58,117 bases of DNA. It comes from a virus (lineage: Duplodnaviria; Caudoviricetes). The notes below the pieces were generated by a model. It had not been told where the DNA came from. It searched no databases and saw only the letters and a list, made by a program, of their open reading frames with translations. The stretch spans positions 1-58,117 of the IMG/VR virus record IMGVR_UViG_3300032271_000996. One strand, given 5' to 3'. The translations under genes were made by a program, and so were the position numbers. Numbering within the stretch: the first letter of the stretch is position 1; each line of letters opens with the position of its first letter. This document shows positions 49,421-53,400 of the stretch, in pieces.

Positions 49421-52400
49421 TCAACCAATTTTGGGAGCAACTAGTGCTACTTCAGTTGTGTTGATTTTAGCAAGGTCTAGAGGGAAATTCGTGAACTCCA
49501 TAAGTTTACTATCCTTATGGCACAGACTATATCATCAACCTTTGTTATTAGGTTGTCGGGCGCTTAATCCTGTCATTAAGAAGACTGAACTTCTCAGGTA
49601 GTCGTTGAACCTTTCTTAGATGTATCTAAGACTTGGCTGCTGATTGCCCTATTTTTAGAGGGTTTCCAGCAATTCACCCGATTTACACTTATTGATTACT
49701 CAATAAGGCCACCATTTCTAATGGGCATTTCTCTCATGCATTGTCTCCATTCCTAGTCCCGCTCTTGTCAATATGTCCGCCCAAGTAGGAATTACTCGGT
49801 TTTGACTATCAACAATGGACTGGTTGAAATTGAATCCGTTCAGGTTAAATGCCATAGTGCTAACACCAAGGGCAGTAAACCAGATACCTACAACAGGCCA
49901 TGCGGCGAGGAAGAAGTGTAATGAACGGGAGTTATTAAAGGACGCATATTGGAAAATAAGACGACCGAAGTAACCGTGAGCCAATTGTCCAAAAGTTTCC
50001 TTAAGGGTTGGACTATATCTTCACCTATTAAAGGTGCTGGGCGCTCTTGCCTGTTATTAAGGGAACTGCATCCCTCAGGTAGTCTCTGAACCTTTCCTAG
50101 ATGTATCTAGGACTTGGATGCTGATTGCCTTATCCATAAAGGACTTAGGTTTCCAGCAGTTCACCCAGTTTAACGTGACCCGCTCTGTCAAGCCACGATG
50201 TTGTAAGTCTCTTCTTCTTGACCGAACTTATACCCATAATTCTGGGAATCATTTTCGGTTGTTTCACGAACCAACGATGAGGTTACGAGGGAACCCCTAT
50301 TATACCTTATTTTCATAAGGAATGGACTATATCATCAACCTATTTTATTAGGTTGTCGGGCACTTAAACCTGTTATTAAGGGAACTATATCCCTCAGGTA
50401 GTCTCTGAACCTTTCTCAGATGTATCTGAGTCTTGGATGCTGATTGCCGTATCCATAAAGGACTTAGGGTTCCAGCAGTTCACCCGATTTTCACTTACTG
50501 ATTACTCAGCAAGGGCACAGTTCCCTATGCATCGCTGAGAAAAGACTTCCTCCAAAAACACCTGCAACGCCCGCCATATGGAACGGATGCATTAGGATGT
50601 TATGTTCTGCCTGGAATACCAACCATTAGGCAGAACGGGAACCTATGTTTCCATAGGGATTGGACTATATCATCAACCTTTTACTTTCTCCCATCTGATT
50701 TTTGCCGCTTTAGTTTGTTGTTCTTTGCGAGTTTCAGAAAGAACTAATCTTCTTTCTTGTATAACTTTAAGACATTCATTTATTCTTTGAGTTCTTCTAC
50801 TACCCATATGAGGTAATATTTGTAAGAGAACTTTTTCTACTTCATCTCTTTTAGTGAGACTTATAGCATAAATGGTTTTTCTTTCAGTTGTTTTCGCTTT
50901 TTCATTTATTGGAACATTATTAAGAAGTTTTGCTGCCTTTTCAACAACATCCTTATCAGTCATAGAAAGTCTAATAACTATTTGAGTTGGATGATGATGT
51001 CTAGGTTTAGTTATCTGAAAATAACCTTCTCCTTCCAATAAACCTGCTAGCCAAGCTGCGTCAATATCAGTCATTTGTTTATCCTCAACTTATATTATTA
51101 TTTATACATCTACCTATTTCTAGGTGGTGTCGTTGGATAAACATTATATCATAAAAGGTTGTCGGGCGCTAGTGTCGTATTACATTCCACGCTTGGAATA
51201 CCGACTAGTCTCTGAACCTTACACAGAAGTATCGTCTGTGTCTTGGATGCTGATTGCCGTATCCATAAAGGACTTAGGTTTCCAGCAGTTCACCCGATTT
51301 ATACTACACATTGGTTTAGTTTATGTAGTTGAAGGTTCCACTAATCCCAAGAGGCATAGAATCACTAAAAGAACCTTGACCGAAGGGGTAGATTAGGAAT
51401 ACGGCAGTGGCAGCAGCAACAGGTGCGCTGTAAGCAACCATAATCCAGGGACGCATACCTAAACGATAAGAAAGTTCCCATTCACGACCCATATAGCAGT
51501 AAATGCCAATCAGGAAGTGAAATACGATGAGTTGAAATGGACCACCATTATAGCAGTGGGGTTCCATATGTTTCCATATGGACTGGACTATATCTTCACC
51601 TTATTTCTATTTAAGGTGTCGGGCGCTAATCTGGTATTACGAACCACGCTTGGTTCCCCCAGTAGTCTCTGAACCTTCCACAGAAGTATCGTCTGTGGCT
51701 TGGCTGCTGATTGGCGTATTTTCTAAAATCCAACTACAAGAAATACCACTTGTTAAAAGTCTATTTCCATTAGCAACTTTATTGAGATGGGACTGATAAA
51801 CTTTTATCCCGTATTTTTCCAAAATTATAGAGCAAACAACATTAAGTGTTTTATCTTCTTCTGGATTAAAAATTACATCTCCAAGATGATTACCAATAGT
51901 TCTTTCAGTCATCTTTTTATAAATGTGAAAAACTTTTTTATATTGTCTATTGGTTATAGTTTCTTTAGTTGCATTTCTTGGATTTTTATAGGCATAATTG
52001 ATAAGATTTTTACCAATTTTTTGCCTTACACTTTTAGGTTGTTTGAGCGCAGCAGAACGAAGTTGTCCGCTTTCTTTTGCAACCTTACCACCTTTTTTAC
52101 CTGCAAGAGAAATAACTTGATGAATTATTTCTTCTTTTTGAGAATAACCTGCAAGTGCTTTCCAGGCAATCTTATCTTCTTCGTTTCCCCAAAGACGCCA
52201 GTTGCAATAATGAAACATTGCGTGTTGTGTTGGAGAAATTTCAACAAGATTTTGTGGTTCATCAGAACCGCCTAGATATTTTGGAATAAGATGATGTTTA
52301 TGTCTCATAGAAAACTTAGCTTTCCAGCAATTCACCCGATTTAAAGTGGCCCAATATTATTTATAAAGCCACTCATCAAGACTTGCCGCTTCCCAGATGG

Positions 52401-53400
52401 GGTAGAAATGCAGTCCGATAGCATTAGAACTTGGAATAACTGCACCACTGATGATGTTATTACCATACATAAGAGACCCAGCAACTGGTTCTCTAATCCC
52501 GTCTCTTATCCCAATAAAACAGTCATATCTTGTGACTTAGACCGTTTCAATTGACCAATTTGATTTGCTCGTTTTGCATTTTCAACTCTTCCCCCGTTTT
52601 CTACCCAATCTTTCCACTCATTAATATGAGAAATACATTCTTTAATTCTTTCACTTCTTCTTTTACCCATATATGGGAGTATTTTTTCTAAAATGAAAAG
52701 AACTTTTTCTCTATTGCCTATATGGAGAGCGTAAACTGTTTTCCCCGTGAGGGTTTTCCTATTGGGTATAAAATAGGGTTTATCTACAAAATTACCTAAT
52801 TTAGCAACCACATCTTCGTCAGTCATAACAAGACGAATATATGGTGCCGGTGGAGCTTTAGATGTTTCATAGCGACCCTTGGAGCGATTATCTATTCCAA
52901 AGTATCCTTCACCTTCTAAAATTCCAGCAATCCAAGTAATTTGAGATTCAGTTAAATCAAGCATTTTGGTTTCACATCTGCTGTTATATTTATACAGCAA
53001 GCGCAAATAAAAGTCAACTGTGAGATTTGGACCATATCTTCACCCTTTATACAAAGGGGCTGGGCGCTCTAGTCGGTTATTAAGCAGTCTCAACTGCTCC
53101 GATGGCCTCTGAACCTTCCTCAAGTGTACTTGAGGCTTGGCTGCTGATTGCCTTTCGGTTTCCAGCAATTCACCCAGTTTTTACATCACCCTTACGGATG
53201 AAGGACACAGACTAAAGCAGTATGTCTACAGGAGGTGCGCCAATAAACGCAATAATGAAGCAAGTAGTAGCTGTGAGTAATGTTGGAATCATAAGAACAC
53301 CAAACCATCCCACATATAAACGATTGTTCGTAGAAGTAACCCAGGAGCAAAATTGTTCCCAGAGATTACTCTCTGAACGTGTAGCAATTGTAGCAGTCAT
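49421..53400 (-). CDS. psbA: Photosystem II D1 protein, 7 exons: 53400-53222, 52504-52367, 51553-51323, 50623-50527, 50295-50191, 49981-49721, 49489-49421
   Basis: Exons sum to 1080 nt = 359 aa plus stop, in frame; Y161, D170, E189, H190, H198, H215, H272, H332, E333, H337, D342, A344 present; E130. Confidence 0.97.
49490..49720 (-). ncRNA. Group I intron 6 of psbA (after nt 1011, His337), 231 nt, no ORF
   Basis: Exon ends in U, intron ends in G; P AATTGCTGGAAA, Q AATCAGCAG, R GTTCAACGACTA, S GATATAGTCT. Confidence 0.93.
49982..50190 (-). ncRNA. Group I intron 5 of psbA (after nt 750), 209 nt, no ORF
   Basis: P1 CGUGGCU/GGUCACG; P/Q/R/S elements; terminal G. Confidence 0.93.
50296..50526 (-). 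ncRNA. Group I intron 4 of psbA (after nt 645, His215), 231 nt, no ORF
   Basis: IGS GUGC pairs with GCAU; AGGGAAC pairs with 3' exon GUUCCCU (P10); P/Q/R/S elements. Confidence 0.93.
50624..51322 (-). ncRNA. Group I intron 3 of psbA (after nt 548), 699 nt, with LAGLIDADG ORF
   Basis: P1 ACUACAU/GUGUAGU; P/Q/R upstream and S downstream of the ORF. Confidence 0.93.
50673..51074 (-). CDS. Intron-encoded single-motif LAGLIDADG homing endonuclease
   Basis: [27 protein letters not shown] at 51099-51106. Confidence 0.85.
   Translation of the reverse strand: MTDIDAAWLAGLLEGEGYFQITKPRHHHPTQIVIRLSMTDKDVVEKAAKLLNNVPINEKAKTTERKTIYAISLTKRDEVEKVLLQILPHMGSRRTQRINECLKVIQERRLVLSETRKEQQTKAAKIRWEKVKG
51554..52366 (-). 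ncRNA. Group I intron 2 of psbA (after nt 317), 813 nt, with HNH ORF
   Basis: P1 GAGUGGCU/GGCCACUU; P before ORF, Q/R/S at or after ORF end; terminal G at 51554. Confidence 0.93.
51637..52308 (-). CDS. Intron-encoded HNH homing endonuclease
   Basis: [31 protein letters not shown]; start set at MRHKH; TATAAATA at 52358-52365. Confidence 0.85.
   Translation of the reverse strand: MRHKHHLIPKYLGGSDEPQNLVEISPTQHAMFHYCNWRLWGNEEDKIAWKALAGYSQKEEIIHQVISLAGKKGGKVAKESGQLRSAALKQPKSVRQKIGKNLINYAYKNPRNATKETITNRQYKKVFHIYKKMTERTIGNHLGDVIFNPEEDKTLNVVCSIILEKYGIKVYQSHLNKVANGNRLLTSGISCSWILENTPISSQATDDTSVEGSETTGGTKRGS
52505..53221 (-). ncRNA. Group I intron 1 of psbA (after nt 179), 717 nt, with LAGLIDADG ORF
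   Basis: IGS GUCU-GUGUC pairs with both exons; P7 covariation GAGGCCA/UGGUCC versus GAGACUA/UAGUCC in most of the others. Confidence 0.93.
52506..52964 (-). CDS. Intron-encoded single-motif LAGLIDADG homing endonuclease
   Basis: [12 protein letters not shown]; start set at MLDLTE; TATAAATA at 52987-52994; stop codon abuts the terminal G of the intron. Confidence 0.85.

Follow-up and report, generated by a model that had tools for sequence, protein, structure and literature searches.

The psbA gene of an uncultured cyanophage is interrupted by six predicted group I introns and still encodes an intact D1 protein. The gene lies on the minus strand (start 53400, stop 49421) of the IMG/VR virus record IMGVR_UViG_3300032271_000996, whose positions 1 to 58,117 were analysed as one stretch of 58,117 nt, hereafter called the window; the completeness of the record is estimated at 27%. 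By sequence, the six interruptions are group I introns belonging to one phage-type family. The reading held here with high confidence is that this is a real psbA gene in which six mobile introns have been gathered by separate homing events, and that the intron load is tolerated and not regulatory.

The phage origin of the window, proposed earlier in a reading of the letters alone (the sequence-only reading), is supported by its status as a virus record and by its large terminase (11996-13678, with a nuclease domain), which is 55-56% identical in protein sequence to the terminases of T4-like cyanophages (Kyanoviridae). Among isolate phages, no megablast match was found to positions 25000-49400 of the window. 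Parts of the psbA locus are contained in sequencing runs labelled freshwater or lake water, and the owner of the gene is, on this sequence evidence, an uncultured cyanomyovirus.

The psbA exons and the D1 product

The exons were mapped by placing an intact phage D1, that of S-H9-1, on the locus, which gave seven collinear pieces. Junctions were set by a U ending the 5' exon, a G ending the intron and a continuous D1 frame. Alternative registers were read at each junction, and a single one obeyed the U/G rule while keeping the D1 frame; the U and the G were found at all six introns. The coordinates, the strand and the junctions after nt 179, 317, 548, 645, 750 and 1011 agree with those given in the sequence-only reading (Table 1), as does its estimate that about 73% of the locus is intron (2900 of the 3980 nt, 72.9%).

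The spliced product of 359 aa aligns without gaps to the D1 of S-H9-1, with 317 of the 359 residues (88%) identical. Residues Y161, D170, E189, H190, H198, H215, H272, H332, E333, H337, D342 and A344 are all in place; we take these to be YZ and the ligands of the Mn4CaO5 cluster, the non-haem Fe and P680 of photosystem II. There is no frameshift, stop codon or ligand loss in the 1080 nt of exon sequence, and the earlier claim of an intact D1 with its ligands is borne out. All six introns, as read from their junction contexts, have an in-frame stop 1-7 codons past the 5' splice site, so that D1 would be translated only from transcripts freed of all six.

The introns as predicted group I ribozymes

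A covariance-model scan, which had been proposed as a check, called all six introns with Rfam RF00028 (group I catalytic intron) at 53-105 bits, above the gathering score of 50 (E 4e-26 to 1e-10). The two lowest scores belong to introns 2 and 3, because open reading frames (ORFs) split these cores.

The core structure was further examined by covariation. Thirty-five ORF-less members of the family, taken from the window, S-PM2, S-SRM01 and IMG/VR contigs, were aligned with MAFFT and counted against a hand-drawn P3-P8 structure that included the P7 pseudoknot; P7.1/P7.2 and P9, with their columns out of register, were left out. In these members 96.7% of the P3-P8 cells were paired, compared with 25-41% when the partners were slid, and compensatory changes occurred at 20 of the 31 pairs (the observed values were reached in 0 of 500 shuffles). 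P7 is nearly invariant, and its one compensatory case among the 35, a U-A to C-G change, is intron 1 of the window. An insert of about 34 nt lies between P7 and P3' in all six introns, at the position where subgroup IA introns carry P7.1/P7.2; two sequence variants of this insert look compensatory in the alignment, in a region where its columns are out of register. Each intron is predicted to fold into a P3-P9 core with an insert in the place of P7.1/P7.2, and would excise itself, by the mechanism of group I introns, through two GTP-initiated transesterifications.

The guide sequence of each intron would pair with the terminal bases of the exon ahead of it (P1). The statement of the sequence-only reading that every intron has its own guide holds beyond chance for introns 2, 3 and 5, with P1 pairings of 7-8 bp (7 bp in intron 3), and is plausible for introns 1, 4 and 6. 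P10 pairing with the 3' exon amounts to 4, 6 and 8 bp in introns 1, 3 and 4, respectively. As a separate observation, exons 2 and 5 share their six terminal bases, GUGGCU (window 52367-52374 and 50191-50198), and either of these exon ends could serve as pairing partner for the guides of introns 2 and 5, an exon-skipping set-up comparable to that of Twort orf142.

Putative homing endonucleases within and beside the gene

Three of the introns hold ORFs, all of them open, for putative homing endonucleases: two of LAGLIDADG type and one of HNH type. The intron-3 ORF, which sits in the P8 loop, matches the Pfam LAGLIDADG families PF14528 (LAGLIDADG_3; 36 bits against a cut-off of 22.5) and PF00961 (23.6 against 23.1). 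The intron-1 ORF has no Pfam or NCBIfam match; it shares 39% identity with the intron-3 ORF (E 6e-28) and matches phrog_5046 at 3e-14. The ribozyme core of intron 1 is confined to the 5' 215 nt and the ORF fills the 3' tail, with its stop codon ending 1 nt ahead of the terminal G. Site-179 introns of 254-258 nt that have no ORF are present in two IMG/VR contigs, here called L135 and L138. The intron-2 ORF begins in the P5 loop and extends into the 3' core; it found no match in Pfam, NCBIfam or PDB sequences, an H-N-H-like motif was seen only by eye in its translation, and full-length relatives with 84-88% identity occur on 23 IMG/VR contigs.

Directly downstream of psbA, where S-PM2 has F-CphI, stands a free-standing ORF. 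Against GIY-YIG profiles it reached 18.5 bits with TIGR01453 'group I intron endonuclease' (cut-off 56) and had no Pfam match, and a PDB protein with a GIY-YIG domain was found at E 0.086. The product is probably endonuclease-like and is not a proven GIY-YIG member.

Distribution of introns among related psbA genes

The survey covered the 80 IMG/VR loci whose exon 1 is most like that of the window, introns being counted as gaps of more than 120 nt between protein matches, so that tiny exons may hide more. A full psbA was present in 64 of the 80, with no intron in 54, one in seven, two in two and three in one. A different picture is given by the relatives of the intron-2 endonuclease: psbA is present at 23 of 50 such loci, in every case with an intron at nt 317 and with one to nine introns in total. 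The extreme is L135 (5370-9977), with nine introns at nt 179, 317, 499, 556, 570, 645, 890, 992 and 1011; its ten exons, the shortest of 14 and 19 nt, encode an intact D1 of 359 aa. L138 has introns at nt 179, 317, 548, 645 and 750; its sixth, at 1002, is truncated where the contig ends. Site-645 introns occur in the contigs L048, L135 and L138 as well as in the window. Occupancy is patchy, and at least about 15 insertion sites are used across the loci compared.

A scan of viral contigs with a 16-nt core motif, a biased sample used only for finding examples, gave at least 118 stretches, and psbA was present in 15 loci among the matches listed. In bacterial genome contigs, none of 120 among the listed matches to the same motif had D1-like sequence, a result that is uninformative on host psbA as chance matches are expected by the hundreds.

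Six introns are therefore rare and not unique, and multi-intron psbA genes are shared by a group of cyanophages. The sequence-only reading had placed six introns far beyond what was known; this holds in comparison with the published phage genes, which have three or fewer in the accounts found, but six is no ceiling, since L138 also has six and L135 has nine.

Origin of the introns

The intron cores cluster by insertion site and not by genome: the core tree needs 16 label changes against 26.4 when labels are shuffled, and none of 200 shuffles was as low. P1-P2 and P9 were removed for this tree, its bootstrap support is rough and many of its forks are open. For example, the core of intron 5 matches that of the site-750 intron in S-SRM01, an isolate from Singapore, at 99% identity. 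Intron 6 departs from its site, its core being nearest to the site-645 introns and not to those found at site 1011 in L048 and L135, and it shares the P1-P2 region of the site-645 introns. CAU precedes both sites, and at least one intron may thus have transposed to a look-alike site.

Alleles lacking single introns exist as DNA. Run X3, from a lake, holds DNA contigs without exactly intron 5 (joint 49981>50191) or exactly intron 2 (51553 to 52367). The same run has joints (50675/51616 and 51679/53132) at which the conserved 3' core of one intron is fused to that of another; these suggest recombinants between intron copies or other arrangements in related phages.

The endonuclease ORFs, the intron-less DNA alleles and the site-wise phylogeny of the cores together imply that the introns were gathered by separate homing events. 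The introns would have been acquired site by site from co-infecting relatives through endonuclease-driven homing, with endonuclease genes retained in three of them. The ORF-less introns were probably mobilized in trans, e.g., by the downstream free-standing endonuclease, in the manner of the 'collaborative homing' pair of S-PM2. The gene may be a hot spot because psbA is near-invariant among phages and recognition sites would always be available. The load would then be tolerated and not selected for regulation.

A tentative and rather unlikely alternative is that the stack serves as layered immunity, each intron destroying the site of one circulating psbA-targeting homing endonuclease in an arms race among co-infecting cyanophages. 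If so, a phage with many introns would shield its psbA region from cutting and overwriting and would export its own flanking alleles. As a by-product, D1 output would hang on the folding of six to nine ribozymes and hence on light, Mg2+ or GTP state, and no protein-coding gene known from a virus or a bacterium would exceed lake-cyanophage psbA in intron density.

The proposal of the sequence-only reading, that six splicing events gate D1 synthesis, is improbable. Under it, the introns would be kept because having to splice six times makes D1 synthesis conditional, e.g., on light or redox state, or delays it. The single psbA intron of S-PM2d splices light-responsively (PMC5931967), light- or redox-regulated splicing of the four Chlamydomonas psbA introns is cited in the same source, and the arrangement has been retained over a dS of 0.77 between the window and L138. 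In the available text of that source, the only intron with documented light-dependent splicing is the single one of S-PM2d (PMC5931967). However, occupancy is patchy (of the 64 full-length psbA genes in the survey by exon-1 similarity, 54 are intron-less), intron-less alleles at the same sites coexist as DNA, and the introns, which carry or adjoin putative homing endonucleases, cluster across genomes according to site. All of these are predicted by selfish spread, and the evidence points to selfish mobile introns.

Selection on the exons and splicing

The exons have a dN/dS of 0.084 against L138 (dS 0.77) and of 0.059 against the nine-intron L135 (dS 1.6); between the window and L138, 48% of the synonymous and 6% of the non-synonymous sites differ. 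As the exons are under strong purifying selection while laden with introns, splicing would have to work. The psbA of the window would accordingly be a real, functional gene with self-splicing introns, for an unsplicable gene would not be kept so.

In the RNA run X15, unspliced pieces over intron 5 were present at a depth of 13-15; the joint 49981 to 50191 was present in a contig at a depth of 244. RNA runs other than X15 had shares of 0.05-0.07. The check for RNA across the junctions, which had been proposed with the first reading, has thus yielded a joined form for intron 5, but an ambiguous one, as the same joint is found in the DNA of run X3.

It is very improbable that the gene is decaying, i.e., disabled by intron invasion and heading to loss with some introns that no longer splice. 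The Rfam scores of introns 2 and 3, with their cores split by ORFs, are barely above the threshold, intron 1 has an unusual 3'-terminal ORF, and six introns would lower the yield multiplicatively; against this stand the intact exons, the dN/dS of 0.06-0.08, the core pairings kept in all six introns and the three open intron ORFs.

Integrity of the assembled locus

A chimeric assembly had been named as what would undo the first reading, and no mis-join was found. In an independent k-mer assembly of the probable source run (Logan contigs), the locus was tiled with no differences at an even depth of about 9-14, and each exon-intron junction lay inside a single contig. Run X2, from a different study, contains pieces of introns 1, 3, 4, 5 and 6 at 98-100% identity, those of intron 6 with no differences, and a 429-nt contig that runs from intron 5 through exon 5 into intron 4. 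In run X3, a 625-nt contig covers intron 3 with seven differences. The contig L138 comes from a separate IMG/VR record, and its alignment to the locus has 76-93% nucleotide identity. The presence of all six introns on one molecule is well supported.

There is little to recommend an assembly mosaic, in which the contig would string together intron-bearing variants of several co-occurring phages and no genome would have all six: a near-identical stretch, at which the source-run contigs break, is common to introns 3, 4 and 5 (71 nt at 85-94% and 38 nt at 95%), related populations vary in intron presence and X3 contigs join different intron copies, but the source run has neither such joints nor differences, its depth is even over all pieces, no exon is repeated or out of order, exons 4 and 5 (97 and 105 nt) lie with both flanking introns within single contigs, the X2 contig bridges intron 5 to intron 4, and L138 and L135 are independent records with six and nine introns.

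Several points weigh against the interpretation of a functional gene with separately acquired, self-splicing introns. The P1 pairing of introns 1, 4 and 6 is only 4-5 bp, which random 10-mers reach in 34-59% of cases, and about 500 nt of ORF separate the core of intron 1 from its 3' splice site. The activities and targets of the endonucleases are predicted from family membership only, and the HNH and GIY-YIG assignments draw on PHROG matches and weak matches. The dN/dS of 0.084 against L138 was obtained from a coding sequence (CDS) with its fifth junction 7 nt off, the effect being small. The joined form in X15 may come from an intron-less relative, given that the 49981-50191 joint is also found in DNA run X3. 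Finally, the k=31 contigs of the source run break within the repeat common to introns 3, 4 and 5, so that the one-molecule linkage depends on the original assembly, the even depth and L138.

Comparison with known systems

The closest parallel is psbA of S-PM2 with its neighbour F-CphI ('collaborative homing'). The gene is the same and so is the intron family, whose cores align and covary together, and the PhotoRC-II leader of the window recurs in relatives; S-SRM01, S-H9-1 and many IMG/VR loci have this motif upstream of their psbA. S-PM2 has an ORF-less intron and an endonuclease gene directly downstream of psbA (PMC6083498), and the window likewise has ORF-less introns and a downstream ORF. 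The differences lie in number and equipment: S-PM2 has one intron, after nt 1002, and the window has six, none of them at 1002; three of the six carry their own endonuclease ORFs, unlike that of S-PM2; and the downstream gene is GIY-YIG-like in the window and Endo VII-like in S-PM2. Site 1002 is distinct from site 1011 of the window, which corrects the background of the sequence-only reading. In marine metagenomic psbA, introns are described as 'widespread', and the single S-PM2 intron as light-responsive, in the accessible part of one report (PMC5931967).

Among isolates, the freshwater Synechococcus phage S-SRM01 is nearest to the locus in DNA (89% over 20% of the query). Its psbA has several introns, one of them with an endonuclease ORF as in the window; the three introns follow nt 276, 750 and 1002, and only site 750 is common to both. 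The authors of that genome inferred a single intron, whereas mapping shows three. In GenBank (NC_070963, 2986-5400) the gene appears as two partial psbA CDS and a 'homing endonuclease', with the last two exons unannotated, which bears out the earlier expectation that automated annotation would fragment such genes. The psbA of S-CBWM1, as cited in PMC8557907, is grouped here with that of S-SRM01. In the literature searched, with subscription journals outside the search, no account described a cyanophage psbA with more than one intron.

The IMG/VR contigs resemble the window more closely. Five of the six introns of L138 are at window sites, and its HNH ORF is 87% identical to that of the window; in L138, however, the last intron is at 1002, introns 1 and 3 have no ORFs and intron 4 is 893 nt long. 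L135 has sites 179, 317, 645 and 1011 in common with the window and differs in its nine introns.

Tandem, similar introns within one phage protein-coding gene, as in the window, are known from Twort orf142 and from the DNA polymerase and terminase genes of Bastillevirinae, where they are of IA type, often with endonuclease ORFs, and the internal exons are short (PMC10136302, PMC11878797). As far as the accessible parts of these sources go, Twort orf142 has three introns, with exon skipping shown (PMC10136302), and the polymerase and terminase genes of Bastillevirinae have two or three (PMC11878797); the published accounts found give these genes three introns at most, against six in the window. 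Green-algal chloroplast psbA is an intron hot spot in the same gene, in an organelle and not a virus (PMC4524492). For example, Chlamydomonas reinhardtii chloroplast psbA is reported to have four group I introns (PMC5931967), and many psbA sites are occupied in Trebouxiophyceae; the green-algal introns often carry LAGLIDADG, HNH or GIY-YIG ORFs (PMC5931967, PMC4524492), according to the available text of these papers.

Other features of the window

Table 1. Features of the psbA locus and its flanks, in gene order (window coordinates)
Feature	Position	Strand	Details
PhotoRC-II RNA motif, psbA 5' leader	53438..53524	-	Rfam RF01717, 52.9 bits (gathering score 39)
psbA exon 1 (CDS nt 1-179)	53222..53400	-	179 nt; D1 mapping
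Intron 1 (after nt 179)	52505..53221	-	717 nt; phase 2; Rfam 70.8 bits at 53231-53007
Intron-1 ORF, putative single-motif LAGLIDADG-type homing endonuclease	52509..52964	-	152 aa; likeness to intron-3 ORF
psbA exon 2 (nt 180-317)	52367..52504	-	138 nt; D1 mapping
Intron 2 (after nt 317)	51554..52366	-	813 nt; phase 2; Rfam 59.1 bits; P1 8 bp
Intron-2 ORF, putative HNH-type homing endonuclease	51640..52308	-	223 aa; phrog_655 'homing endonuclease', 2e-10
psbA exon 3 (nt 318-548)	51323..51553	-	231 nt; D1 mapping
Intron 3 (after nt 548)	50624..51322	-	699 nt; phase 2; Rfam 53.0 bits (5' part), 32 bits (3' part)
Intron-3 ORF, putative LAGLIDADG homing endonuclease	50676..51074	-	133 aa; Pfam PF14528 8e-9, PF00961 1e-4
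psbA exon 4 (nt 549-645)	50527..50623	-	97 nt; last codon H215
Intron 4 (after nt 645)	50296..50526	-	231 nt; phase 0; no ORF; Rfam 87.3 bits; P10 8 bp
psbA exon 5 (nt 646-750)	50191..50295	-	105 nt; D1 mapping
Intron 5 (after nt 750)	49982..50190	-	209 nt; phase 0; no ORF; Rfam 91.5 bits
psbA exon 6 (nt 751-1011)	49721..49981	-	261 nt; last codon H337
Intron 6 (after nt 1011)	49490..49720	-	231 nt; phase 0; no ORF; Rfam 104.7 bits
psbA exon 7 (nt 1012-1080, stop included)	49421..49489	-	69 nt; D1 mapping
G+C-rich hairpin just past the psbA stop	49374..49391		On the minus strand, six-T run after hairpin; terminator-like
Free-standing ORF, probably GIY-YIG-type homing endonuclease	48574..49332	-	253 aa; phrog_314 'homing endonuclease', 1.5e-8

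A near-consensus sigma-70-like site (49396-49424, minus strand; TTGATA, 17 nt, TATAAT, matching 11 of 12) overlaps the psbA stop and lies upstream of the free-standing endonuclease ORF and ahead of the terminator-like hairpin; overall, the promoter scan did no better than chance, with 10 sites found against 12.6 expected. Adjoining the endonuclease gene is an ORF of 301 aa (47594-48496, minus strand) that holds only the N-terminal (ATPase) domain of a terminase. A split terminase was considered for it and rejected, for the complete large terminase with its nuclease domain lies at 11996-13678 and the ORF is a separate, paralogue-like one. A single ORF of 3777 aa occupies 28365-39698 on the minus strand. 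Among the related contigs, the cyanophage contig L086 has an array of about 20 tRNA genes (1415-5134), and glutamine riboswitch aptamers are present at L037:4144-4196 and L108:2310-2362.

Implications for cyanophage psbA

The psbA of the window takes a known type of element to a new extreme. Its intron count is not a unique maximum, and the present evidence does not make the gene a regulatory gate. The psbA of uncultured lake cyanophages is, as predicted from these loci, a hot spot for introns, with as many as nine predicted ribozymes per gene. The known intron density of a phage gene, so far given as singles, pairs and triples, is raised to six in the window and to nine in L135, with exons of 14 and 19 nt. 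A phage gene can thus near the intron density of algal organelles and yet stay under purifying selection.

Such genes offer a natural test of splicing fidelity, with many near-identical ribozymes in tandem, and this arrangement makes the risk of exon skipping real. Gene callers fragment psbA genes of this kind, and surveys of auxiliary metabolic genes (AMGs) and counts of psbA diversity in freshwater viromes would hence miss or miscount them, the S-SRM01 record being an example of a miscounted psbA. The findings further suggest a large pool of psbA-specific homing endonucleases that move among lake cyanophages, which may include candidates for new specificities.

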